A stretch of DNA of 64,000 bases from contig JAUFOR010000008.1 of assembly GCA_040285745.1 (NCBI GenBank), positions 1,178,001 to 1,242,000 of the forward strand, given 5' to 3'. This DNA comes from Barthelona sp. PCE (taxonomy: Eukaryota). Below are positions 5,749-60,672 of this stretch, piece after piece. The position numbers were made by a program, and so were the translations under genes. The stretch's first letter is position 1, and each line of letters starts with the position of its first letter. The notes under the pieces are model-generated. The model saw only the letters and a list, made by a program, of their open reading frames with translations. It was not told where the DNA came from and searched no databases.

Positions 5749-8700
5749 CTATACGATAACTCGGATCAATGTTTCACAACACGGGGGCAAATATGGACTC
5801 GGGTGCGATGTGATGTTAATAAAACCGCTGTAATCTGCACCACCAACACTTTTTATCTCAAACATAAGCTTCTCGAATGGTCGCAAGAACACAAGCTCTT
5901 CTGACACTCTACACTGGCGTGTATGCAGATTGAGATACTGGCAATAGTCTACATCACTACAAAGTATAAGATTGGCCTTAAAGGTACCACTGTCGCTCAG
6001 CCTTAGTTTGATAACAAAGTCGTCCTCTTCTCGAGCAAGTTCCTCGAACGGGATGTACTGTGAGCTTTCTCGCTGTATTATGAATCCACGATCTAGATTG
6101 TAGTCAAGATGAACCGGAATAGAAGCGCTGATTTTTGAATTCTTAATGCGATACTGAATGGAGTCTGCATTTTTGTCCCCGTTGAGGCGTATGAAGCGGT
6201 TAGTGAGCGATGTAAACATGCGGAAATCATCAACCATGCTGAATTCTTCAATAATTGAGTGATTTTCGTTGTAAAACAATGAATCAATAGTAAAGACAAT
6301 ACGTTTCCTTTCCTCAGGTTTTAAATCAATCGATGTGTCACCTTTTACCCATGGTTGATATTTAAACTCAATGGTTTGCATTTCTGTTCCGTTATTCACG
6401 AAATGTACAACCAATTCATAGTTATGTCGATATCCAGACACCTTCATCGTCAACGGATAGTGCTCAACTAGATATTTGGAGTCGCGTAACTTCAAAGGGA
6501 AGTGACAAAATCTGTGTTGATCTTCTGCATTACGGAGCACGATATCAATGTTCAACTCAATTAGTTTGACATATTGCCTTGTGATCTTGCCGATTTGGGT
6601 CGTCAACGGCCAGAAGCTTTGGGAGGCAAGCATCATTGTTGTGTCTTGTCTCTGCATATCGTGAATATCAAACACCAACTGGCACAAAACATCGACAGAG
6701 CTCTGCGGCTCGATCACCAACCCGGGTGTAAGGACACCGCTATCTAGGGACTGTACCCAGTGCGGGTTGATACGTTCAGTGAAGTAGTTAACAATGCGAA
6801 TGCGGAAATTTGATGCATCAAGTATACTCAACTCCCGCAAATACTCCAACCTTTCATGTTTCATGAGGCCGTCCAAAGCACTGTTGATATTACAGTTATT
6901 GAAGCGAAGATCCTTGATAACTGAATGCAAAAACACATTCTGAACGTTCTCTGAGATGTTCTGGATACGTATCCTGAAAATATTACTGTTGTCACGTGAT
7001 GCACTGGTGTTCAGCGAACAGTCTAACGCATATATCAGAGAGCTATTGTCGTTCACATGACTCGAAACAATGAACGCAGACAAATCGTCGTTGCGACTTA
7101 CCTGCTTAAACGATACCCATTCAGAAATATTACTATGCTCCTTTTCGTTGAAAATAACTGAGTCACCAAAAAGATTCTGCTCTCGAGTTTTTTGAATGGT
7201 TGATATAAAAGCGTTATACAATTTTGTAAAGTTGCTTGGTGTGAAATGATCAAACGGAAGGTCAATTGCAGCGGGGATTGGCGTCGTTGGCTTGGAAAAG
7301 AAATCCTGCTCCGAAGGTAATGGTAAATCAGTTAAAAACGGTGGTAGAGTATTATCAATTGTTGTCACAGTTCCAGGCGAATTGTGGCGTGGGCTAAGCA
7401 TCATTGCAGTGTTCTTGATTGTGGTGGAAGAGCGACGCGAGGATCTGACAGAAAAAGATTTGCTAATACTATCATCATCATCGTCAAAATTCTCTGGCAA
7501 CAGGAATTTATCCTGTAGGAACTTCATAAACCCTTCAACTGTGTCTATATCACCAAGACTACTCGCTATCTCTTCTCTGAAGAATGTTATCGTACAGGGA
7601 ATGTAGCTGATACTGTAGTTTGAGTTCAGTCGTAAGCAGAAATCATAGACGACGTCTTCGTTTGAAGTCAAGATCCGCTGAATCAGATCATGATCATTTC
7701 TCATGCACATTTCATACAGCATGATAGTAACGTTGAGATAAAGTGTGAGTTCGATACCTGACCACCCATTAAGCTTAATACTTTGAGCTTGTGTGTACGA
7801 TTTAAGGAAAACCTCATTCTTAATATCGCGAGGACGTTCCGTAACAAATGCATTAATACGTTTCTTACACTTTTTGATTTTCTTTTCACCCTTCAACTTT
7901 TTCCCAGTACGGAGCTCATCAGTCCTCTTTCGGATAGCTATTTTGACCTTCCTGTTGATCTGCTCAAAGTTTCCATCTCTATTAGTCTCAGAGTTCATGT
8001 CAACAACTGCTTCGTTTTCTTCGTTCTTCTCACGGAAGGTGTAGAAGAAGCCATCCTCCATGAGGGTGCCCGTGACGCTGTCCCAAGAGCTCTCTCCTTG
8101 ATTCACACTCTGCAAAAGACTCAGTTTAATATTGTATTTCACCTGAGACTTGTTGCAAAGTATCGTTTTAAACTTTATACTGCGTAAAAAGATATTTTCT
8201 GTCCTTGGTTTCATGTTAAATTGCAAAGTTTCAGCGATCATATCATCTACATCATTGTTCAAATCCAAATTTTTCAGTCGATAAAAAAGCTTCTCGGATT
8301 CAAACTCTTCCTTACTGTACATGCGAAGGGGACTTGTTGTGAAATCCAAAACACCGGGTCGGATGATTAAATCGTCTCTTTTTATGACTTTAGCCTTGAT
8401 CTTAACAAGTATCTTTTTAATATTACTGAAAACATTGAATCCGACTGAATACTTGTCAAAATCAAACTCCTGGTTGTGTGTGTTGATGAATTGTTTCAAA
8501 AAAACATCGCTGCTGTTGGAGTCAAAGTTAACCAAACTATACACCATCAGCTCAATGTTATTAAGCTTGCGACCATGATCGTAATAGGCGCGCAGGTCAA
8601 ATGTCTTGTTCTTGTTATCAAACAGCATATTCTCCTGCGAGAAGATAAGTTTGTCCAAACTCTTAAATAAAAAGTTCTCGCAGTTGAGCATGTCTAATAT

Positions 8701-11622
8701 TTCCACGTTGCACGACATCTTACCGATCTCACTAGAGTTGAACATGATCACTGCGCTCTCGCTATGATTGGGTTTGATTTGGAGGAAGGAGTTCTCAAAT
8801 GATAGGCTTTTTGAAGCATGAGACAAACCACTGTCATCGTTCCGCACCGTGAGATATAGAAATGATTCAACCGTGCCCTCGTTCTGAATGATTAGCTGCT
8901 TGGAAACAGTACATTTCATGGGGACATTACCAAGATTAAGTGTTTTCTGCTGAAGAAAGAGAGATGTCTTGATTATTGAGCCAGTGAACTCCAGATGTAT
9001 GGACTGACTTAGTGTTAGATCATGTATTAGGGAGCTCATGGGGAAAACATTTGTATTCTTGCGATGTGCAATTGTGAATTCAGCCGAGGTTGGTTGATAG
9101 CTTTGTACCTTTATACTCTGCTTGAAGTCACCTGTTTGCTCAGATGCAGGGAACGCGATGATAAACATAGAAACTGTCGATTCAGGAAGAACCTTAAGGA
9201 TGGAGTGTTCGTTAAGCTCAATTAATAATCCGCTTTCTACCAACAAACTGAGTGCCAGCACCCTCAGCAGCTTGAAACTGAGTCTCTGCTTGACCGACAG
9301 CTTCTCAGGCGTGGGTAGGTCGAACATACGATGTATCAAAGTTTTAAAAAACTGTTTATGTACATCGCTGAGCCCTTCAAGGAAGGGCATAACTTGATCG
9401 ATAATGTGATCAGAAGCATTTTTATGATAGAAACTAAGGAGATACCCAGGCGTCTTGGGCATGTACTGATCCTCAAGGATGTTTATGATACGATCCGTAG
9501 GGACTGCCAGATCCAAGAAATCGACGATACGGGGCACAGAAATCCGCTGCTTCTTACGTTTGTAAGTAACAATCGAGTCGATCTGGGTCACCACTTCCAA
9601 AAGGGTCTTGATTTTTGGCTTGTGAACAAAAAGAGAATTAAAAGTAAAACAGCGCAATTCACCTGAGCTTTTGGTAAAATTCAAATATTGAACATTCTTT
9701 GATATATTGGCCAAATGGATTGGTTCAACTGACGGAAGCCCTAACCTTAGATCTCCAAAATCGTATTGCGTTTGCTTGTATTCTGCTTGACAAACTTCCA
9801 GAAGAGGTTGTGTTTGTAAGATGGGAGAGTCAAGAACCTCCCTAACACTATAAAACGCAAATGGAACGGAATCTTCATGTTCATACACATCTTGAAGTAT
9901 GAAAAGGGATAGTTCATTCATAGGATTGTTCTCATTCAGTAATTTCAGCTCAAAAACCTTAACTCCGTATTCAATAAGTGTAAACTCTAAACTAACTCGG
10001 ACAATAGCGTTCTTATCGATTGTGTATGATTCACTTTTAGATTTGATATTACTATGGGGGTTAATAATCCTGACTACTGTTCTGATATCAGACTTACTCT
10101 TAACATAAAAAGTGACAGTCTTCTTCTCGTCCTTACGCAAGCCGCTGATGTAAGCGTAACGCTTTGATCGGTATCCTCGATCGTTGAGACCTTCAATAGA
10201 AAAATTATTCTCACCATCATCCTTGAGCACTTTGTTGAACTTTGTAAATAAATGCTTGGCCAATTCACTGCTTCTCTTAAATATTTCAACGTCTGATGAT
10301 GGAAAAACAACGCGACTGATGCATACAGAAGCACGACAAGGTACGCTAATTGTTTTGACTGAGTTCAGGTTATTCTGCGTATCAACAGCCGAGTATGTCT
10401 CCAAATACTTGTGTAGGCTTGTATTTTTTGTGTTAGAATCATTCGAACTCACTTCTAAAAGCAGCTTAAAAGATTTCACGTGCATTCGGTGTGGGTGATC
10501 CTCAGATTTCTTAAGTAGAGGACAATATACCATGTTGAGTTGAATTGTGGAGTGTGGTTTCAGGTTTTGTAGTGATGTTTTGCTATTAAACTCAGTTGAA
10601 ATGTAGCATTCATTTGAGTTGATTGGGGACCCATCATTCTTGATCAGTTTAAACCGCACCTCCATGTTTCTGGATGTACTGTTGATGAGTTTAAACGCTT
10701 TAGATGTGAAATTTGGCTTAGAAAAAAAAGATTGAAGGAAAAGATTGTTAAAATGGAACTTTTCCAAAATTTTATCGTCTTCATCTGTCAGCAATAAATT
10801 AAGATTCTCTTGCAGATCAATGACACTAAATTGACAAGAATGACAACAAAATGCTGAATTTTTGCTTTTAAGAGTAAGTCGCAAATGGCTCTCACCAATA
10901 TGCGAACATTTGATACTCAATTGGATATGTTTGATCTCCATTGGGCTAAACTTGATGATGTCACTGCTAATGTCAATAGAATCATTGATAATAACGGAAG
11001 CAAAAATATTTTCACTTGTTTCAATCGTTAAAAAGTAACTCGAATCCAAAGGAATCATACTTCTGACGTCAATTTCATAGTCGAATGTTTGATTTTCATA
11101 AAAATTCCCCATATCTTTCTTGACCTCTGAAAAAGCCACCCTCGAACGATAAAAAACTCCACGCAATAAATATACAACATCATTGAAGAACAGACTAGCC
11201 TCAAATAATTGGCCAAGGTCTGGGAATCGTTGTGCTAAAGGGGTGTCTTCCTCTTCATCACTGGGAATATCCTCATCATCTTCCAGAAGTAGTTCTTTAT
11301 CAGATATATTGTTTTGGAGGTAAGGGATAAAGACAGAGACATAGGATGCTGCCCCAGGTTGGAGTGTAAGTTCATTAACCTTAAGGGATTGCAACAAAAT
11401 CATTGGAATATTGGTTGTTGTGTTGAGTGTTACATCTGTAACGAAGTAACATTTGTAGTCCTTATAACGCAAATTGATGCTTAAAAAGCTGCTTGTGAGA
11501 TTAGTTAGCAAAAACTTTAAGTGGAACACATGGGAAGCAAGACCCAGCCCTAAATCCACGAAATTGTTAGGTGTTTCGATGGGTTGAAAGTCCTGATTAA
11601 CTGCTATGACCTTCAAACTCAT
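5749..11622 (-). CDS. Very large protein with multiple predicted ASH/PapD-like Ig-fold domains
   Basis: About 1957 aa uninterrupted. Recurrent beta-rich units of the form (D/N)(F/L)G...xxNx(S/G)...(I/L)xP, e.g. LNLGNV...LIIQNEG...IKP and YDFGDL...HLANIS. Confidence 0.6.
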   Translation of the reverse strand: MSLKVIAVNQDFQPIETPNNFVDLGLGLASHVFHLKFLLTNLTSSFLSINLRYKDYKCYFVTDVTLNTTTNIPMILLQSLKVNELTLQPGAASYVSVFIPYLQNNISDKELLLEDDEDIPSDEEEDTPLAQRFPDLGQLFEASLFFNDVVYLLRGVFYRSRVAFSEVKKDMGNFYENQTFDYEIDVRSMIPLDSSYFLTIETSENIFASVIINDSIDISSDIIKFSPMEIKHIQLSIKCSHIGESHLRLTLKSKNSAFCCHSCQFSVIDLQENLNLLLTDEDDKILEKFHFNNLFLQSFFSKPNFTSKAFKLINSTSRNMEVRFKLIKNDGSPINSNECYISTEFNSKTSLQNLKPHSTIQLNMVYCPLLKKSEDHPHRMHVKSFKLLLEVSSNDSNTKNTSLHKYLETYSAVDTQNNLNSVKTISVPCRASVCISRVVFPSSDVEIFKRSSELAKHLFTKFNKVLKDDGENNFSIEGLNDRGYRSKRYAYISGLRKDEKKTVTFYVKSKSDIRTVVRIINPHSNIKSKSESYTIDKNAIVRVSLEFTLIEYGVKVFELKLLNENNPMNELSLFILQDVYEHEDSVPFAFYSVREVLDSPILQTQPLLEVCQAEYKQTQYDFGDLRLGLPSVEPIHLANISKNVQYLNFTKSSGELRCFTFNSLFVHKPKIKTLLEVVTQIDSIVTYKRKKQRISVPRIVDFLDLAVPTDRIINILEDQYMPKTPGYLLSFYHKNASDHIIDQVMPFLEGLSDVHKQFFKTLIHRMFDLPTPEKLSVKQRLSFKLLRVLALSLLVESGLLIELNEHSILKVLPESTVSMFIIAFPASEQTGDFKQSIKVQSYQPTSAEFTIAHRKNTNVFPMSSLIHDLTLSQSIHLEFTGSIIKTSLFLQQKTLNLGNVPMKCTVSKQLIIQNEGTVESFLYLTVRNDDSGLSHASKSLSFENSFLQIKPNHSESAVIMFNSSEIGKMSCNVEILDMLNCENFLFKSLDKLIFSQENMLFDNKNKTFDLRAYYDHGRKLNNIELMVYSLVNFDSNSSDVFLKQFINTHNQEFDFDKYSVGFNVFSNIKKILVKIKAKVIKRDDLIIRPGVLDFTTSPLRMYSKEEFESEKLFYRLKNLDLNNDVDDMIAETLQFNMKPRTENIFLRSIKFKTILCNKSQVKYNIKLSLLQSVNQGESSWDSVTGTLMEDGFFYTFREKNEENEAVVDMNSETNRDGNFEQINRKVKIAIRKRTDELRTGKKLKGEKKIKKCKKRINAFVTERPRDIKNEVFLKSYTQAQSIKLNGWSGIELTLYLNVTIMLYEMCMRNDHDLIQRILTSNEDVVYDFCLRLNSNYSISYIPCTITFFREEIASSLGDIDTVEGFMKFLQDKFLLPENFDDDDDSISKSFSVRSSRRSSTTIKNTAMMLSPRHNSPGTVTTIDNTLPPFLTDLPLPSEQDFFSKPTTPIPAAIDLPFDHFTPSNFTKLYNAFISTIQKTREQNLFGDSVIFNEKEHSNISEWVSFKQVSRNDDLSAFIVSSHVNDNSSLIYALDCSLNTSASRDNSNIFRIRIQNISENVQNVFLHSVIKDLRFNNCNINSALDGLMKHERLEYLRELSILDASNFRIRIVNYFTERINPHWVQSLDSGVLTPGLVIEPQSSVDVLCQLVFDIHDMQRQDTTMMLASQSFWPLTTQIGKITRQYVKLIELNIDIVLRNAEDQHRFCHFPLKLRDSKYLVEHYPLTMKVSGYRHNYELVVHFVNNGTEMQTIEFKYQPWVKGDTSIDLKPEERKRIVFTIDSLFYNENHSIIEEFSMVDDFRMFTSLTNRFIRLNGDKNADSIQYRIKNSKISASIPVHLDYNLDRGFIIQRESSQYIPFEELAREEDDFVIKLRLSDSGTFKANLILCSDVDYCQYLNLHTRQCRVSEELVFLRPFEKLMFEIKSVGGADYSGFINITSHPSPYLPPCCETLIRVIV

Positions 11623-12828: not shown

Positions 12829-13074
12829 ATGATTTTCCCAATTAGATGTTTTACATGTGGTAAGCTTATTGCAAATTTATTCATGGAATACGAAGCACTA
12901 CTTAAAAGTGGTGTAACTGAGAAAGAAGCCCTAGAGAGGCTAGGAATTGAACGTTTCTGTTGCAGACGTGTGTTTCTGACGTCAGTTGAACTCATTGATA
13001 GATTACTTCAGTACCATGTTGATACAGCAAGCAGCAATGATGATCCCCGCATGGAAATGGAACCCGTAGAGTAG
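12829..13074 (+). CDS. RPB10: RNA polymerases I/II/III shared subunit RPB10 (RPABC5)
   Basis: MIFPIRCFTCGK and ERFCCRR zinc-binding signature. Confidence 0.97.
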   Translation: MIFPIRCFTCGKLIANLFMEYEALLKSGVTEKEALERLGIERFCCRRVFLTSVELIDRLLQYHVDTASSNDDPRMEMEPVE

Positions 13075-28898: not shown

Positions 28899-29191
28899 TA
28901 AAAGCAAAAGGGAACAAAAAGAAATATCATGTTTATTCCCTGTTTTAAGTTTAAAACTGTCTTTTTGAGGGGTTCATGGGTGTGTAAAATAGCTGTGATA
29001 TCCTGAAATTAAAAACAGACTTCAAGAAACGGTACCTGGGTTGAGATTATTGTGGTCTGTTCTTGAGCTGTCTAACCACACAGGTCCATCATTGTAACCG
29101 TGTACCATCAGCAACTATTTTATGTGAACAAGCATTGTACCAACTGGTCTTTCCATTTTTGTCTCCTTTCAGTTGTTATCCCTCACATAGA

Positions 29192-43922: not shown

Positions 43923-45176
43923 TCAACGCGTCACACTAATTTTTTTCTTCTTTGTTGTGTTTAGCTGTTGATATTGAGCAGAAAATTCCTTATATGAATC
44001 CATACACTTCTTAATATTATGCACAATACATACTAGCAACGAACAAATTACAACAAAAACTATTATGTATATTAAACCCTTCCAAAACTGCGTAATATTT
44101 TGACCGAAGTAATACTTTAAGTTACTAAGCGTATATCCGTCGCCAAACATTTTGGAAAAAATATATCCAAAGGACTTTGAATAATAATATATCATAACTA
44201 CAAATGATTGAAACTGCCAGATAATACTCTGTACGAAACCTACTCTATAAGTTGCTTCTGAATCAATGCTATTGTAAACATCTTCATCTTTTAACAAGAA
44301 GTAACATAAATAGAAAATTTGAAAAATCCAAGACAAACTGAGAAGCCAAGCAGATACCACCTCGCTGCCATATGCACCAGTTGTATACAGTGTAAAACAA
44401 ACTATGAAAGAAATTGTATTGGCTATGTAATATAATCCTGAAAAAATAAAAAACCAAAAATTTCCACTGGCTGCAGAAGTATTCACAGCTGCCATAAACG
44501 AATAGAAAATATTGAGAACCACAACACCATGCACCATACCATAAAATACAGCAATTGATGGTAGCATACTGAGACCAACGACGCAAAAATAAACTTGACC
44601 AATTCCCAATGCGCTTAACGAATATTTCCATGTGTATTTGGAATAAATGTTATAGTTGTAAACACCCTGCTCATAGAAATCATAATCTCGGTTAGGGAAC
44701 ATATCCATCCATGAGAAAGCAGTGTTTGAAATCCAAATCCAAAGATAATTGAACCAATAATAGATGTAGACAAGCTCAATTATAAAGAAAATAATACGAA
44801 GTACGTTAAAAGACTCAAGTTCATCTGACCAAGGTGAAAAATAATCGCTTGCATGACGCCAAATAACTATTAAACTAATCATAAAAGTCCAGAACCTGAA
44901 CCATTTCCACTCAGGCCCTTCAAGGAATATGGTACCAATCTGACAAATTGCAATAAAGAAGTTAATGAGATAACTCCAAAAATACTCGAAATCATGACTA
45001 CCTGAGCATAAAACCTGCTTCAGAAACGAAAAGAAAATAAATATTGGGCTTACATGGACCTGTCCATCATCGTAATCGTTAAAATCGTACATTTCAGAAT
45101 TCATTGGCACAACAGGAGCTCCTACTGGTGCAGATGGTGCTTGAAAAATCACGTTTGGTGCATTCGGTGCAGACAT
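43923..45176 (-). CDS. Uncharacterised multi-pass membrane protein (paralogue of 2483-3709)
   Basis: 417 aa from MSAPNAP. Shares VH.SP...FFSF.KQ.LCSG and the C-terminal KKC...TKKKK with the ORF at 2483. Confidence 0.8.
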   Translation of the reverse strand: MSAPNAPNVIFQAPSAPVGAPVVPMNSEMYDFNDYDDGQVHVSPIFIFFSFLKQVLCSGSHDFEYFWSYLINFFIAICQIGTIFLEGPEWKWFRFWTFMISLIVIWRHASDYFSPWSDELESFNVLRIIFFIIELVYIYYWFNYLWIWISNTAFSWMDMFPNRDYDFYEQGVYNYNIYSKYTWKYSLSALGIGQVYFCVVGLSMLPSIAVFYGMVHGVVVLNIFYSFMAAVNTSAASGNFWFFIFSGLYYIANTISFIVCFTLYTTGAYGSEVVSAWLLSLSWIFQIFYLCYFLLKDEDVYNSIDSEATYRVGFVQSIIWQFQSFVVMIYYYSKSFGYIFSKMFGDGYTLSNLKYYFGQNITQFWKGLIYIIVFVVICSLLVCIVHNIKKCMDSYKEFSAQYQQLNTTKKKKISVTR

Positions 45177-45908
45177 ATGTGTTGAAAAGAAAAGAAAAAA
45201 GAAATACAAAGAGCTACCGAAAAAGAAATTCGTTTTAGAAACATTTTTTATTTTTAAGTATTCACTCGTGACATTTTAGATCACAGCTTCCCCAATAAAG
45301 ACTACAATATCACTATTCTACACATCTATGTTTGTATTAATCCCCAAAATCAATCCCTGGCTTAAAAACATTAATAAACTTGAAATCAGTGATATGAACA
45401 AATCCAAAAAGATAATCTTATCGAAAAAAGGCCCTTTTGATCCAACAAAATCTCGTTTTTCCATGGTCAAAATCCAGAGAAACTGCAAAAAAGACTGAAA
45501 CAATCGAAATTTCATATTCATATCTCATCACATTACTCTACCCCCTCATATTGAAGCCTAAAAGCATTCTTACATACGTGTATATAATCTATCTAATATG
45601 TAAATACTAAACAATTGAGCAAAATGACTAAAAGGTCATAACAATATGATTCTACCTTTTCTACACATGATGTTGTGCATACAATAACGTGTTTTCGACG
45701 ATGATACACGCCATATGCGATGTATCTATCTAGTAAATGGCAAAAATGTAATACAAGCCATATACCATCCACAAACAAATTAAAGTACGTGACTGACTGT
45801 TGGGCGTACCAATAAACAAAATTGTGAGGGAAATATTTACTTCCTAGTTTCTCTTGAAGCAAGATAAGCATAATGCCAATAAACGGCTACACGCGCATCT
45901 GAGGCTGC

Positions 45909-46176
45909 TTAGAGCTTGAGGGAGTTTCTTCTCCAGTGCTTAGTAGGTGTGTACTTGGCCTAAATGTAAGTGCAAATGTGAATCAAAAATATCGCTTTGC
46001 AAAGCCTGTAGTTCCTTGGTTTATGCGCGAACGCATGTGGAATACAGCATGTGGAAGCATTACGTGAAACATACTTTGTAACCACGCTTCATTCTGGCGA
46101 AGTAAGGCTGGCGACGGTTCTTGTTGCGAAGAGCACCCATTTTACGCTTAAGATGGAAGGATTTGTGGGAAGACAT
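45909..46176 (-). CDS. RPL39: 60S ribosomal protein eL39, two exons: 46176-46075 and 45959-45909 (not in the ORF track)
   Basis: The spliced product MSSHKSFHLKRKMGALRNKNRRQPYFARMKRGYK/AKYTPTKHWRRNSLKL (50 aa) matches the eL39 pattern MSSHK.F..K......QNR..P...RM....HWRR..L. The exons join in frame across a GT-AG intron. Confidence 0.95.
45960..46074 (-). other. Spliceosomal intron, 115 nt, phase 0
   Basis: 5' GTATGT (46074-46069) and 3' ACTTACATTTAG (45971-45960). Removing it restores a full-length eL39. Confidence 0.93.
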
Positions 46177-46202
46177 GCTAGCTTAGATCAAAATCCGGGG
46201 TC

Positions 46203-46221
46203 GGAAGAAGGGGAAAGGGAG
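46203..46221 (-). promoter_or_regulatory. Pure pyrimidine tract upstream of RPL39 (TOP/initiator-like)
   Basis: CTCCCTTTCCCCTTCTTCC, 19 nt, ending about 27 nt before the ATG. Confidence 0.4.
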
Positions 46222-46768
46222 CAAAAATTCTAAAGAAGTTGTATGCATCTTTTTCGCTTGATTCTCTACATTACCATGCGGTTGAGATGGATTTGAAGTG
46301 GTTTATTTGTGAAAAATTTGCTTGCAAGAGCAAGAGTGACATAGAAAACGGTTCTTGATTTCACATTGTTCTCCACGTAAATTATAACAAACTTCACTTT
46401 ACAAAAGATGATTAATACTTATTACTTCAATTGAATATAGAATAATCGATTCATAGAGGATATTGGAAAGTTGCCAGGGTTAATACTTTTAATTATTGAA
46501 CAATTTGACAATGCAAAAAATCAGGTGTGTTTCTTGAACATGGGAAGAACTATACAAAGTATAAGCGAAAGTATGGAAAACAACCATTAACAAAATGATC
46601 TCCCTTTCTTACACATACTGTCGCTTTTAAGAACATAATGAGCACTTCGCACACACATACTGATCTTGTTAACACTCAGAAAATCTAAAATTATGGCTGA
46701 AGGCAAAGCAAAACTCTGTTCTTGTTATCCGTTTTTTAATCCTTTACACATAAGAATGATACTTTATA

Positions 46769-47998
46769 ATGGTTTCATCAAAGGCAAAGCCAACATCAAA
46801 ACGTAAAAGGAAGACAAAGGCTGAGATTGCCAAAAACTGTCGTAAGCTGAGTGAGTTCTTCACTATTGAAGGACGCAACCATACATCTGCGCCTATGTCA
46901 AAGTCTAAAAGTCACAAGAAAACTGTAACAACAAAGAAGATTCGTACTAGAACTCCAAAAGGTGAAAGAAGATCAAAATCCAAGTCTAAGAAACTAGGTG
47001 ATGTCAGAGAACCCATTGGAACTAAACCAGCCATTGATAAGAACCAGAAACTGATCACAGACTTTTTTACATTTTCTACTTTACAAAAACTACAGACAGA
47101 AGAGATTCTTGTGGAGAAAATGTCACAGTTGTCCCAAGAAACACCTCCTCCCATTGTGAGGGTTTCACAATCTCAACAAGAAGAGGAAAGCATTCGTGCT
47201 ATGATGTACGACTACGATCTTACCGATTTTGATATTCATGAAATGTACTCTTTCAACAATTCCATGCTCCATCTCGAACAAAAGATGTATCAAACAACAT
47301 ATCCAGTGTTGAAAGAGGGATCAGGCAATATTTCCGTTGAATATTCTATGCTTAAGCCTCAAACTAAATATGGATCACCATACACCGTTGTACTAGATTT
47401 AGATGAGACCCTTATACACACAACTGATACGCTAGATACGAATGTAATGTGTGATCATGAATATGAAGAGTTATTTATTGCTGGAGAGACATATTATACT
47501 TTCTTTAGGCCACAGGCACGTGAGTTCGTTCGAAACCTCGCCAGAGACTTTGAAGTTGTTATTTTTACAGCTGGAACAGACGAATATGCAGATAAAGTAG
47601 CAGCCATGCTCGATGCACGATGGCATGTGAAAAGAGAAGAAAGTATGTTCAGCGCAGTACTATCCCGGTCTCAGTGTACAGAGGTTAAAGTAGACCGTGA
47701 TTCAGCCGTTTTCGTGAAGCATCTTGATTACCTTGGAAGGAATTTGGATCGAGTCGTAATGGTTGATAATACCATCAACGCGTTAAGTTGGAACATAGAC
47801 AACCTTGTGCTGTGCGGCCCTTTTTACCCCACACCACATTGTGTTAATGATCGTACACTGGGCAGAATTTATAGTTATCTATCAAAACTTCGTCGATGTG
47901 GTAATTTTCGTAGTGCAATCAGAAAAGATTTTAAGATGGAGGATAGAATTATCAACCACTGTGAGAACTGCATGGATGATGAAGCTGATTCAGATTAG
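46769..47998 (+). CDS. FCP1/SCP-family (NIF, HAD) CTD phosphatase-like protein
   Basis: VVLDLDETLIH, RP...F, VVIFTAG, KHLDYLGRNLDRVVMVDN and a basic N-terminus. Confidence 0.92.
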   Translation: MVSSKAKPTSKRKRKTKAEIAKNCRKLSEFFTIEGRNHTSAPMSKSKSHKKTVTTKKIRTRTPKGERRSKSKSKKLGDVREPIGTKPAIDKNQKLITDFFTFSTLQKLQTEEILVEKMSQLSQETPPPIVRVSQSQQEEESIRAMMYDYDLTDFDIHEMYSFNNSMLHLEQKMYQTTYPVLKEGSGNISVEYSMLKPQTKYGSPYTVVLDLDETLIHTTDTLDTNVMCDHEYEELFIAGETYYTFFRPQAREFVRNLARDFEVVIFTAGTDEYADKVAAMLDARWHVKREESMFSAVLSRSQCTEVKVDRDSAVFVKHLDYLGRNLDRVVMVDNTINALSWNIDNLVLCGPFYPTPHCVNDRTLGRIYSYLSKLRRCGNFRSAIRKDFKMEDRIINHCENCMDDEADSD

Positions 47999-49930: not shown

Positions 49931-50610
49931 TCCTTATTTAACGATCCAGAATAACTGGTGTTGATCTTAACTAAAAAATAGCTGCAAAAAGCCGTTTAAA
50001 TAGCTGTAAAATAGCTGATGAAGGTGAAAATAAATTCAACAAAATGCAAATACGCGATAGTAGTCATCTAAACCTACTAATAAATTAGAATCATCTCTTA
50101 GACATGGTTAGACAGAATGCAAAGTTCAAGGGAGAAAGAAAACTCACATTTTTCTTCCTAAAACTGTTCCACTGACTAAGGTTAACTAATCTCATAATCA
50201 AAGTTGAAACTGAATATCACCCTTAGGAGAGAGAATTATTAATTCCGCATCCTGACATTCCGTTTACAATATAATTAAGAATCTATCTGAAATACTTCTC
50301 AACTACCAACATTATGATCGTTTTTGACGAAATACCAACCTTGTTTCACGTCCAAGCTACTAATTATCTAACACTACTGATGATAGTAACTGCACTGTTC
50401 AAATTTTGCACCCGATCGCTGAAAATGTTGGATTTTAGCTGTACATAGTATGTGTACTTATAATACACTAATTTTCAGCTCAATGAGTATAACTGAAAAG
50501 TAGTAGAATTCAAGTGAGTTGTGCAATTCCATAATTTTTACTTTTATAGAAGGTGTGCTCAAAGCAGATTTATCACCAAATCCAACTCAATTATGATTAA
50601 AATAACAATT

Positions 50611-50715
50611 AAGGCCCAAACTAAAGCCCATATGCTCCCAAACTGCTTTCCATGCACTTCCCCAAGCTAAATAAGCCCCCATAAATGAATTAAGCCCCTT
50701 AAAAAAGCCCAAAAA
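50611..50715. repeat. Cluster of five A(A/G)GCCC motifs in an intergenic region
   Basis: AGGCCC at 50612 and AAGCCC at 50624, 50673, 50692 and 50705. Confidence 0.6.
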
Positions 50716-51449
50716 GGCAACTATAAATAACCTGCTTTAGTAACAATATATAGACTCGAAAATATGCACAAAAAAAAAACGGTTTTAACAGCATTTATAC
50801 TTCAAAAAACAACAGAAAAAACACATGAAGCTTATAAAAAGCTTATTTCAAGGATAGCTAACAGTTTGATTCAAACGGTAAGACAAGTATAAACAAACAA
50901 AAAATAATACAAGAACGTAGTTCTGTGCTCAATTTAAAGCCTTAAGACTAAAACAAAAAGGTGAGAAAAAGTAATATAGCTGTCTATTGAAATTCTTATT
51001 TCTTGCACGTCATTTTCGTGGTGTTCTACCTGAGCATCCCATGAAACAAGCATAAAATTGCAATTTAAACCAAAGTATCGTTTTACAGTTTCTAAGAATA
51101 CGTTCTTTGTATGTTATACTTCAGTAAGTGCTTATCTTGCTGGCGATAATGAAACTCAAATGTAAAAAACGCAATTCTAAAAAGCACCTGTTTTGAATGC
51201 GAACTTTTTGAATTTCTCTATAATCTTAATGCTATCGTGATACTGATGCCTTTTAATTACCAATTCAACTCACAAACATCACTATTGAAAACTGTTAATA
51301 ACCAAAAATGTCTATCGAAGAAAAGAACCAATTAAAACCAATAATTCAAGTGCTAACAGAGTATTTAAACCACATATCTTCTTATTTGACTTCTTAAATA
51401 TGGTGGAAGAATAAAGAACTCGTTATCTAAATTTCAACCATTCTCTCAA

Positions 51450-54400
51450 ATGGAAAGTGTTGAAACTTATGACGAAAAAGAGTTTTATGGGGTCATAAGC
51501 ACTCTTCCAAACTGTGATGTCCCTTCACAAATGATTTCGGGTTTTTTTACGCAAAGTAAGAAGTTAGAGGTTATATTCATTCGACAAACATTGCTGGAAC
51601 TGTATGAGGTGTCTGAAACGGAACTTGTATTAATTCTGAAGATACCAATTTTTGCTGAAATTAGGGCTTACAAGGTTTACAGACCAGATTGGGCCAGGTA
51701 CGACTTCTTAGCGTTATCTGACATAAGTAATCGGGGCTGTGCATTGTCATTTCGTGAAAAAGGCAGGGTTCGTGAAGAATTTTCTTTCACATTCCCAAAG
51801 GTTGCCAGTTCAACACTATCAACAAATAATGTCATAGCAGTGAACAGTAACGGTACTCGCCTGCTCTTCCTGTTCGGCTCTAGCGATTGGCACGTTGTAC
51901 ACCATGATGGAAACCGATACCAGACGTTTTCAACTATGATTACACCAAACTATACTGATGCATACTTCATTGACAACCACAACATAGCAGCATTACGGAA
52001 GCCGGACTACCCAGGAGACGACGTGCTGTATGCAATTCGAGCAAGTGCAAAGGCCGAGCGTTTGTCACGACAGCCCATATCTATTATTAATCTTTCGGTT
52101 GCTAACATGCCCCGCAGTGTCTTCAAGGCATTTAGGCACATGAACTGGATCTTCTACATTTCTAAATCAACAATATATTACTGTGATGCGTCTGAAGATA
52201 AACTTCTGTCAGTGCGAGTTTTTGATGATAACACTGCCATTTCCACTCGACTGGGCCTGCTTGGCGGTGGTGAATTCGAGCCGTTGATCATCGACGAGAC
52301 CAAGTTTATCTTACCTAATCTTAATCAATTGATTTTTTGTTCTATGCAACACAACCACCTAACTTTCATATCGCTTTCACTGAGTATTGACCTGAGCTCA
52401 ATCGCGTATGTTGGTGAGGGTAGGTGCTTCGCTGGATTTGTGGACGGTGGTACCGAATTTTTGCAGTTGTCTTTAGAAAGAGCCAGTGTTGATACATTAA
52501 GCCGAAAACAATGTATAGGGGGGCTTTCGAGCATCGCATCCCTAGGTAATGGGAAGTTCTGTGTGTTATGTGGTGTGCACCACAATATCATCAAACTCTT
52601 ATCACATCAGCACCAAGCAGTTCCGATTGAAGATAGTATAACCTTTGGCTCCCGGATTCCGTACTGTATGTTCACTCCGGCAACCGACTCGGTGGCTGTT
52701 CTTTCTCAAGATGGCAGTGATAATGTCGTGATTGATTTCCTCACAGAAGGGGAACGGGAGACATTTGCTGTTGATGGGCCCGTTGCAAATGTTGCTCAGT
52801 GCGCTGGAAACATGTATTTTGTTCAGGAATCATCAATCACAAATGGTGATGACACAGTCTGTGAATGGCAGGGTATTTGTACTGCCTCCGCATCAACAGA
52901 CAGTGCAATATACGTCACGACTGCCTTTGATCTCATTGTTTACGACGGGGAAGAAAGGAAAAAGAATTTTGGCTTCAACAGAGGTATCACACACTTATGT
53001 CTTCACAATAACCTGATCATCATTGTTGACGGTGATTCTATTGGATATATTCTCGATGGTGATACGTTGGACATCTGCAAAACGTTTTCATTTGCAGAAC
53101 TGCTGGATCAGGAAATTTTTTTTACACTCTTTCAACTCGTTTCTGTTGAAGATAGTGTCATTGTCACTCTCACGGACAACACAGTTGCCCGCCTTGTTGT
53201 GACACGTGATGGTGTTGAATGTCAAAAAAAAAACCAAACAGATCAGTTGATCAGATTCTGCCGTGACACTGCTTTTGTGTTATCGGGTGATGATCTCTTT
53301 TTCTTTGACGCAGTGGCACTCCAGACTGTCAGACGTATTGGTGCAAAAACCGAATCTTCAATCATTGACTGTTGTCGTGTTGGTGATAAGTTATTCATTC
53401 TTGACTCATCAGGCACGGTGTTCACCGTCCAGAAGGAGTGCAATCTGGTGCTGGACGATCTGCAGCGGACCAATGAGATTACACATAGTGAAGGTTACAC
53501 GACACTCGCCAAATTGAGTGATGACTATGTAGCGATGGGAAGAGATAACACGCTCATCATCAGAGACAGGTTCCTCAAGAAAACTGTGGACAGCCTGAGC
53601 TTTGAGGAGGGATTTATTGTCACCAACGTAAGTTACGACCCAGAAAACAAAATTATAACTGTATGCGCTGCTGAGATGGACACGAACTCTGCTGAGTTCG
53701 TGCTTCCGACCGCAGGCATGTTCTCCTCTTACATTATTCGCAATGGAAGGTTGTCTCGAGCACTGACAAAGATATCAAAACCAGAAGGCTGCTTCTTTTC
53801 TTACTGTGATGGGTCAAACGCTATCATCGCATGGCCTTCCGCAGTGGAACTATACTCATATGATGAATACGGAAAGTTTAGACTGCTCAACAGCAATCCT
53901 AACTGGGGAATAGTTGCAGACATCAAGCCAGCTGGTATCCCTGGTTGCTATTATGTGTGCGATATTATCGAGGGAGTTGTGCTACTGCGATTAACACTGT
54001 CTTCTTCTGAAAGGTGTGTGAGGTACATTGGCGGCTCTATGCCAACCAGACTCCATCTCTTAAAAGGGTATTTAGTTGTTTTTGATGCCATGGGTGGTCT
54101 TTTTGTGCTAAAGCGAGAGGAATTACGGGCACTGAAGTCCCACTCTTTGCAGTCGGTAGCGAGCATTCACCTTGGATCAACTAGCATATCTAGCATACCT
54201 TACACAACACTTTCGGGTGAGGAATGTTTATTGACATGCCTGAAGAACGGTTCTCTCATCAGACTGCACCATATAAGCAATGAGGAATATGAGATGCTGT
54301 TTAAATTAGAGAAAGCGCTAAAAGAAATGGTTCCCAGATATGGTTTTAACTATGATAAATACAGAGCCACCATTATGGATGGAAACGGCAACATACTCGA

Positions 54401-54524
54401 TATGTGCTTGCTCCGACAATTTGAAACACTGAATGATGTTGAACAAAATGTGATAGTTACTGAATTTGTTGGTTGTGAACTTGAAGAACTTATTCACTTA
54501 ATAGAAAAGTATAACAGGCAGTAA
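51450..54524 (+). CDS. DDB1/CPSF160/SF3B3-family triple beta-propeller protein, most like DDB1
   Basis: 1024 aa. N-terminal GFFT...LELYEV...IPIFAEI, CPSF_A-type VCDIIEGV and IHLG, and C-terminal NILDMCLLRQF. Subfamily uncertain. Confidence 0.75.
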   Translation: MESVETYDEKEFYGVISTLPNCDVPSQMISGFFTQSKKLEVIFIRQTLLELYEVSETELVLILKIPIFAEIRAYKVYRPDWARYDFLALSDISNRGCALSFREKGRVREEFSFTFPKVASSTLSTNNVIAVNSNGTRLLFLFGSSDWHVVHHDGNRYQTFSTMITPNYTDAYFIDNHNIAALRKPDYPGDDVLYAIRASAKAERLSRQPISIINLSVANMPRSVFKAFRHMNWIFYISKSTIYYCDASEDKLLSVRVFDDNTAISTRLGLLGGGEFEPLIIDETKFILPNLNQLIFCSMQHNHLTFISLSLSIDLSSIAYVGEGRCFAGFVDGGTEFLQLSLERASVDTLSRKQCIGGLSSIASLGNGKFCVLCGVHHNIIKLLSHQHQAVPIEDSITFGSRIPYCMFTPATDSVAVLSQDGSDNVVIDFLTEGERETFAVDGPVANVAQCAGNMYFVQESSITNGDDTVCEWQGICTASASTDSAIYVTTAFDLIVYDGEERKKNFGFNRGITHLCLHNNLIIIVDGDSIGYILDGDTLDICKTFSFAELLDQEIFFTLFQLVSVEDSVIVTLTDNTVARLVVTRDGVECQKKNQTDQLIRFCRDTAFVLSGDDLFFFDAVALQTVRRIGAKTESSIIDCCRVGDKLFILDSSGTVFTVQKECNLVLDDLQRTNEITHSEGYTTLAKLSDDYVAMGRDNTLIIRDRFLKKTVDSLSFEEGFIVTNVSYDPENKIITVCAAEMDTNSAEFVLPTAGMFSSYIIRNGRLSRALTKISKPEGCFFSYCDGSNAIIAWPSAVELYSYDEYGKFRLLNSNPNWGIVADIKPAGIPGCYYVCDIIEGVVLLRLTLSSSERCVRYIGGSMPTRLHLLKGYLVVFDAMGGLFVLKREELRALKSHSLQSVASIHLGSTSISSIPYTTLSGEECLLTCLKNGSLIRLHHISNEEYEMLFKLEKALKEMVPRYGFNYDKYRATIMDGNGNILDMCLLRQFETLNDVEQNVIVTEFVGCELEELIHLIEKYNRQ

Positions 54525-55468: not shown

Positions 55469-55798
55469 ATGCATTTTAAAACAATCTTTGTTATTTGCGC
55501 TGTGCTTATTGTCGCAACTGGGGCCAAAAAATCATGTTTAGATCTAGATACGTGCTCAGCCTGTGTTAATGATCCTGAATGCGGTTGGTGCGCTTTTTCA
55601 TCAGGAACAAACAGCCGTTGCCTCCATCTAAACGACATGGCGGACAGCACATGCGCAAACCAGGGTGGTGAATGGCTCGACGATCACTGTCGTATCTCAA
55701 AATCAGATTTCATGTTTTATTTGGTTGGATTTGGCCTCTCGCTCGTCCTCCTGCTTCTCACAATCCTTCTTTTCAGGTGTTTTGACTCTAGATCATGA
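55469..55798 (+). CDS. Small type I membrane protein with a single PSI domain (PTTG1IP-like architecture)
   Basis: Signal peptide, CLDLDTCSACVNDPECGWC PSI signature and a C-terminal TM. Confidence 0.8.
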   Translation: MHFKTIFVICAVLIVATGAKKSCLDLDTCSACVNDPECGWCAFSSGTNSRCLHLNDMADSTCANQGGEWLDDHCRISKSDFMFYLVGFGLSLVLLLLTILLFRCFDSRS

Positions 55799-59646: not shown

Positions 59647-60672
59647 TTATTCGATACCATTTGATCGACATATGGACTGTTTGGCATCAAAAATTGCTCT
59701 CTCAACCCTTTTCACATTTGTCACTCTTGAATCATTACATAACCCAACAAGCCACAGTTCCAAAACATAGAACTGCTCATCGACGAACCACTTGATAATA
59801 TCAATGATTTCCTGCTTTTTCAACGGTGACAGCAAGACGTCGTCCGTGTTTGGCAACTGTAACCGATGTGACACGTCTCTCAACAGCGCTGCACGGTCCT
59901 CAGAGAGGGTATCAGGCAGAACAACCAACCAGTGAAGGGAAAAGAAAGAATGAAAATCACAACTGTTTGGTAATACTTCAGCATAACTGTCATTATCTCT
60001 CATTTCTTTCCTCGCATCCACCAACTCGACGACCAGGGCAGCCATCATCGCCGCTTCATCACTGGGCAAAGCTGAGTCATCACCCAAAATGATCGACAAT
60101 ATTTCATTAAAGACGGAGGGCGGTATATAATCAGTCACAGTACTTGCTGAGGTGTGCTGCTGGGTGTACTCCAGTATAGCGTGCTCAATGTCGCTGTTGT
60201 CTGGTATAAATTCAAGAACTGGAGCAACATTCTTACTCTTCCTCTCTTTTTTTGCTCTTACTGCCTCCTTTAACTGCCGTTTCCGCTCTGCTATGCGTAT
60301 GCTACGCTTTTTGCGAGCATTTTCTGTCCTCTTTTGCTCACTGCGCACACTTTTGCGTACTTTTGTCAAGTTGCGTGTTATATGCTTCAGAGATGATTGA
60401 GAGACACCTGTGCTCGATGTTAGTGACTTCACGCTCGTCACTAAATCATTTAATGCACCAAAATCGATATTTAGATCAACATCATCTTCTGCTGGCGGTT
60501 CTTCATCATTTTTAGCACATTCAACCACAACTGGTGCTGTTTTTCGAACATTTACCTTGCTTTTCGACGCATCAAGCGCTTCTCGAAGCTGAATGATGTA
60601 GGTCTCAAAGCACTCCACCTTTTGAGCAATCTCTAAACATGCATCTCCCACCATGCCCTCAATTTCATCCAT
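59647..60672 (-). CDS. Hypothetical protein
   Basis: 341-aa ATG-initiated ORF with coiled-coil and basic segments. Confidence 0.65.
   Translation of the reverse strand: MDEIEGMVGDACLEIAQKVECFETYIIQLREALDASKSKVNVRKTAPVVVECAKNDEEPPAEDDVDLNIDFGALNDLVTSVKSLTSSTGVSQSSLKHITRNLTKVRKSVRSEQKRTENARKKRSIRIAERKRQLKEAVRAKKERKSKNVAPVLEFIPDNSDIEHAILEYTQQHTSASTVTDYIPPSVFNEILSIILGDDSALPSDEAAMMAALVVELVDARKEMRDNDSYAEVLPNSCDFHSFFSLHWLVVLPDTLSEDRAALLRDVSHRLQLPNTDDVLLSPLKKQEIIDIIKWFVDEQFYVLELWLVGLCNDSRVTNVKRVERAIFDAKQSICRSNGIE

Follow-up and report, generated by a model that had tools for sequence, protein, structure and literature searches.

A predicted two-exon gene for ribosomal protein eL39, with a single 115-nt GT-AG intron, in a compact 64-kb eukaryotic window

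The locus described here is very probably a functional gene in which two exons for eL39, a protein of the large ribosomal subunit, are separated by one 115-nt U2-type GT-AG intron (phase 0, codons 34/35). It was found in a window of 64,000 nt (the whole stretch of DNA that was analysed), within what the initial annotation had described as a gap of about 1.5 kb holding a split eL39, with exons of 102 and 51 nt joined across GTATGT...AG into 50 aa. The coordinates and sizes were identical when re-read, and the ORF-free stretch around the gene measured 1,592 nt (45177-46768), flanked by ORFs at 43923-45176 (minus strand) and 46769-47998 (plus strand). At the level of sequence the split eL39 with its GT-AG intron is an established gene model, and from it we infer that the eL39 RNA is spliced. 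Its parts are as follows.

46075..46176, minus strand: eL39 exon 1, the ATG and 33 codons, translated as MSSHKSFHLKRKMGALRNKNRRQPYFARMKRGYK, which begins MSSHK and ends RGYK (102 nt, 34 aa).
45960..46074, minus strand: spliceosomal-type intron, 115 nt, GT...AG, phase 0 after codon 34.
45909..45959, minus strand: eL39 exon 2, 16 codons translated as AKYTPTKHWRRNSLKL, followed by TAA (51 nt, 48 plus the stop).
46177..46768, strand not applicable: spacer of 592 nt between eL39 and the NIF-type phosphatase gene (46769-47998, plus strand), the two genes being transcribed divergently.

The identity of exon 1 was assessed by a phmmer search of all PDB chains at E<=10, in which each of the 35 distinct sequences matched was an eL39/L39 chain, aligned in register from chain residue 1 to residue 31-34. 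The best match to a single-copy chain had an E-value of 5.5e-4, and a tandem construct gave 3e-8. In a protein atlas PF00832 clusters accounted for 27 of 30 feature matches (top score 0.92), which we treat as a lead only. Searched by itself, the 34-residue exon did not match PF00832 in Pfam even at E<=10; it had no match at E<=0.001 in a library of 1.84 billion representative proteins, for which it is a very short query; and no protein of 22-70 aa in a large protein collection shared three 5-mers with the 40-aa stop-to-stop ORF that contains it.

We then scored the joined peptide with two independent profiles. For the eukaryotic one, metagenome contigs were scanned with a degenerate pattern for KRRHWRRTKLG, a motif taken from the PDB matches, and 28 unique near-full-length sequences were drawn from the 80 environmental loci listed; this profile is a biased sample, because the loci were chosen by their exact C-terminal motif. 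The search space was the 3,327 six-frame peptides of the window of at least 10 aa plus the joined peptide (3,328 in total). The joined peptide ranked first of the 3,328 with 31.0 bits (E 3.2e-8), a score from a locally built profile and not from PF00832, whose gathering cut-off in Pfam is 21.6 bits; its alignment covered residues 3-48 with one single-residue gap. The exon 1 ORF scored 24.7 bits (E 2.8e-6), so that exon 2 added 6.3 bits over exon 1 alone, and exon 2 alone scored 9.0 bits, third among the six-frame peptides. With the second profile, made from 32 archaeal L39e ORFs plus a seed, the joined peptide again ranked first (13.9 bits, E 0.0059) in an ungapped alignment that spans the junction, and exon 2 was the best of the 3,327 natural six-frame peptides (E 0.12). 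Exon 2 by itself is marginal with both profiles (E 0.12-0.23). It does carry the conserved C-terminal (R/K)HWRR..L segment of eL39, as KHWRRNSL, and of the two occurrences of [HN]WRR in a six-frame reading of the window it holds the sole HWRR.

Translation of exon 1 starts from an ATG at 46176 on the minus strand, and if the frame is read on without splicing it continues as VCFT*, that is, to a stop four codons inside the intron. The intron length is not divisible by 3, and its excision leaves the frame open through to the TAA. A pre-mRNA with this one U2-type intron would thus be spliced from 102 + 51 nt into a reading frame of 153 nt, coding for a very basic protein of 50 residues (K+R = 17), whereas translation of the unspliced message would end after 38 residues, short of the conserved C-terminal KHWRR...L segment, so that this message could not yield full-length eL39.

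The 592-nt spacer upstream is presumed, from its position only, to be the promoter region; none of its ORFs matched Pfam, and Rfam gave no match either. The two spacers that flank eL39, 45177-45908 (732 nt) and 46177-46768, rank with the longest spacers of the window (median about 190 nt), and searching both returned no family-matching ORF and no RNA family.

It is very unlikely that the locus represents a degenerating or redundant copy of eL39, in which the 115 nt would be an intron-like insertion and a working eL39 would be encoded elsewhere. Such a reading would fit with a branch motif that is off consensus and with the unusual divergence of the protein sequence, in which RRQPYF replaces the usual RPIPQW and RRNSL replaces RRTKL. 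Against it, the start codon, both reading frames and the stop codon are intact, the edges of the insertion are exactly GTATGT and AG, and excision restores both the frame and the alignment to the family. Further, other proteins encoded in the window diverge to the same degree (34-38% identity to the nearest non-self Pescadillo, 27% to the nearest Rpn2), which argues that the divergence is a trait of the organism and not a sign of decay.

We also examined if the split gene could be real but use another donor or acceptor, giving a different C-terminus. All 32 in-frame GT..AG models yielding 40-70 aa were scored against the eukaryotic profile, and there are thus 31 further combinations that would give a product of suitable size; the uncertain branch point leaves some room for them too. 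The proposed junction ranked first, at 31.0 bits against 26.4 bits for the runner-up and no more than that for every other alternative. The proposed model was alone among the best 12 of the 32 in having a GTATGT donor (0 of the 11 next-best alternatives), and most alternatives lose the KHWRR segment, so that use of a different junction is highly improbable. That the likeness of two short, unrelated ORFs to eL39 is accidental, with no gene present, is the least credible reading of all: both ORFs are very short and K/R-rich, a composition prone to spurious matches, and exon 1 was without a match in two very large protein libraries, but the PDB matches were eL39 in 35 of 35 cases and in register from residue 1, the ORFs share a strand and are correctly ordered, with 115 nt between them and splice signals precisely at their borders, and HWRR is unique within the window.

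The signals of the proposed intron were read in the sequence. The 5' end is GTATGTTTCAC, with the GTATGT donor, and the 3' end is GCACTTAC-ATTT-AG, finishing GCACTTACATTTAG; GC content is 40%. As is characteristic of the U2 type, the element starts with GT and ends with AG, and the frame is restored on its removal (GTATGT...TTTAG). The branch consensus reported for intron-poor species is WCTRAYN (PMC2483917); the candidate in the intron that comes closest, ACTTACA, departs from it by a T in place of the purine R, and no perfect WCTRAY was seen when the intron was read by eye. The branch point is therefore only assumed, with the branch adenosine presumably held in ACTTAC. The pattern GTATGT..ACTWAC-N4-AG was not enriched in the window (1 occurrence against 0.7 expected from shuffles), nor was ACTWAC-N4-AG (2 against 3.1 expected). 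By themselves the splice motifs carry no significance; the weight lies in the coincidence of the motifs with the exon borders. The intron folded no better than shuffled sequence (z = -0.05) and matched no family in Rfam, so there is no sign of a structured or snoRNA-bearing regulatory intron; likewise, no C/D-box motifs were seen on reading its sequence.

Introns kept in ribosomal protein genes, strong splice signals and a constrained distance from branch to AG are well described for intron-poor eukaryotes (PMC2483917, PMC6679479, PMC12316389). The split eL39 is a real but ordinary gene structure, and is another case of this known ribosomal-protein-intron pattern in compact, intron-poor genomes. 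According to two of these papers (PMC2483917, PMC6679479), budding yeasts, Encephalitozoon, Giardia and Spironucleus resemble the window in having a ribosomal protein gene that is short, presumably strongly expressed and split by an intron near its 5' end, and also in genome compactness combined with a strong GTATGT donor, with the difference that intron-poor status here is drawn from one 64-kb window. The 5' signals given in PMC6679479 are VTATGTT for Giardia and GTATGTTTAAC for S. salmonicida; the GTATGTT of the eL39 intron fits the former and is close to the latter. The same paper gives VCTRACACRCAG as the fused branch point/3' splice site motif of Giardia, and the eL39 intron has the same hexamer-N4-AG spacing, its branch-like hexamer standing exactly 4 nt ahead of the terminal AG. 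Both the 5' signal and the branch-to-AG spacing are similar to those of Giardia and Trichomonas introns.

The likeness is not complete. In the fused introns of diplomonads and parabasalids CTRAC is followed by an ACRC spacer, whereas the window has ACTTAC and ATTT; between VCTRACACRCAG and the window 3' motif ACTTACATTTAG several of 12 positions differ, in a comparison with a single intron from which no consensus is derivable. The long introns of these groups are reportedly base-paired, in contrast to the folding of the eL39 intron at the level of shuffles. Also set against diplomonads and parabasalids is the use by the window organism of TAA, TAG and TGA as stops.

We compared the intron position with other eL39 genes over the region from W26 to K40 in the same 80 environmental loci listed (L043-L122), 72 of which were informative; the sample is biased toward genes encoding exactly KRRHWRRTKLG, and some contigs are near-duplicates. 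A GT/GC-AG intron following CDS nt 107, within codon 36 and in phase 2, was present in 36 of the 80 loci listed, 35 were contiguous from W26 to K40, in 8 the upstream exon was not found, and a single locus (L105) had an intron after nt 102 (phase 0, codons 34/35). Expressed among the informative loci listed, the codon 36 phase-2 intron was thus seen in 36/72 and the position of the window intron in 1/72. The intron-containing environmental genes code for about 51 aa and, as in the window, are interrupted by a GT-AG intron within the final third of the CDS; because the window intron lies 5 nt upstream of this widespread eL39 intron and in another phase (0 vs 2), it is not the common one. In L105 an intron occupies exactly the position of the window intron. 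The placement of the window intron may represent sliding of an ancient codon-36 intron, or it could be an independent gain at nt 102, parallel to that in L105; the position would fit either. L105 itself is a metagenome contig of 65% GC with an intron of 104 nt and a GTGCGT donor, and has a second break upstream near codon 9.

A second point of difference concerns the start codon. In 25 of the 80 loci listed the gene was contiguous from residue 2 with no in-frame ATG, mostly behind CAG, which indicates an intron directly after the start codon in those 25; the window eL39 is without one. Intronless eL39 genes made up 7 of the 80 loci listed.

The remainder of the window is compact. It has 36 gene models, of which eL39 is the only split one, and is 85% coding, with a median spacer of about 190 nt, some overlapping gene ends and all three standard stop codons in use. 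ORFs that could be named from Pfam include Pescadillo, Spb1, Rpn2, RFC, a MutL-type protein, Beclin and SGF29. The statement that the other approximately 36 genes read as single ORFs holds by ORF reading, there being 35 further large ORFs together with at least two small single-exon genes in gaps. The stronger statement, that the eL39 intron is the only detectable one in 64 kb, stands insofar as a second convincing intron was not found, but detection power was low, and introns that follow a short first exon, lie in a UTR or keep the frame open are liable to escape.

Looser intron patterns gave 3 and 5 matches in the window, against 6.3 and 11.3 expected from shuffles. The second ACTWAC-N4-AG site, at 60413-60424, was rejected as an intron since it lies within an ORF and the nearest GT donor shifts the frame. 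Three models with an ATG mini-exon were found and all three were rejected: the first starts inside the upstream gene, the second removes the N-terminus of its ORF, and the third (28980-29083, 3' end CTAACCACACAG) adds a stretch that looks non-coding. The element of the third model is intron-like, 104 nt on the plus strand (GTGTGT...GTCTAACCACACAG), and is situated upstream of a gene for an EamA-type transporter; at the 3' end the element is similar to the fused motif of Trichomonas and Giardia, and it may be a candidate element in the 5' UTR or one that adds the non-coding-looking stretch.

We also looked in the window for components of the splicing machinery. No clear spliceosomal protein was present, and Rfam searches, at gathering score and at E<=0.1, found no RNA family, snRNAs included; there was also no tRNA. 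The ORF at 51450-54524 (plus strand) codes for a very divergent beta-propeller protein of 1,024 aa of the RSE1/DDB1/CPSF1 family, and was considered as the spliceosomal SF3b3. This was rejected because it looks instead like DDB1: all 39 of its 39 PDB matches were DDB1, although weak (E about 0.005-0.011), and there was no match at E<=0.001.

Judged from these sequences, the organism is a eukaryote that evolves fast and has no close relative in the collections searched. A 1,957-aa ORF at 5749-11622 (minus strand) has a HYDIN/CFA65-type Ig domain and is closest in the atlas to CFAP65/hydin-like clusters; this suggests, as a lead only, that the organism has cilia or flagella. From the one 64-kb window we infer that the host genome is intron-poor overall, and it is plausible that a few introns are retained genome-wide together with a working spliceosome. 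An extended picture, which we consider unlikely as a whole, would have the host as a deeply divergent, flagellated and nearly intron-less eukaryote, isolated from everything in public protein sets, with the eL39 intron as one of few survivors, at a rare position, recognised via a non-consensus ACUUAC branch site at a Giardia-like fixed spacing. If recognition through ACUUAC were true, a co-evolved, streamlined U2 snRNP would be implied.

The practical value of the result is a correction of the gene model. The eL39 gene was overlooked by ORF-based calling, as can be seen from the protein collection, which holds other proteins of this contig yet has none sharing words with exon 1. The intron provides a first example of splice signals for an organism without a close sequenced relative, and, given its whole genome or RNA data, could serve as a seed for finding its full set of introns and its snRNAs.

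Several minor observations were made in other parts of the window. Within a gap of 753 nt lies an unsplit gene for the RNA polymerase subunit Rpb10 (12829-13074, plus strand; 81 aa; PF01194, E 1.5e-24). Another inter-ORF gap holds an unsplit gene at 55469-55798 (plus strand) for a predicted membrane protein of 109 aa, whose N-terminus is signal-like and which has a PSI (plexin repeat) domain (E 5.9e-5) and a hydrophobic segment at the C-terminus. The longest ORF-free spacer, 49931-51449 (1.5 kb), had no Rfam match at E<=0.1; it is A-rich (39% A) and contains AAGCCC four times within 50624-50710. Lastly, a 387-nt contig in a bacterial assembly (L010) encodes an RFC small-subunit-like peptide that is 47% identical to the RFC of the window, and this contig may be foreign DNA in that assembly.
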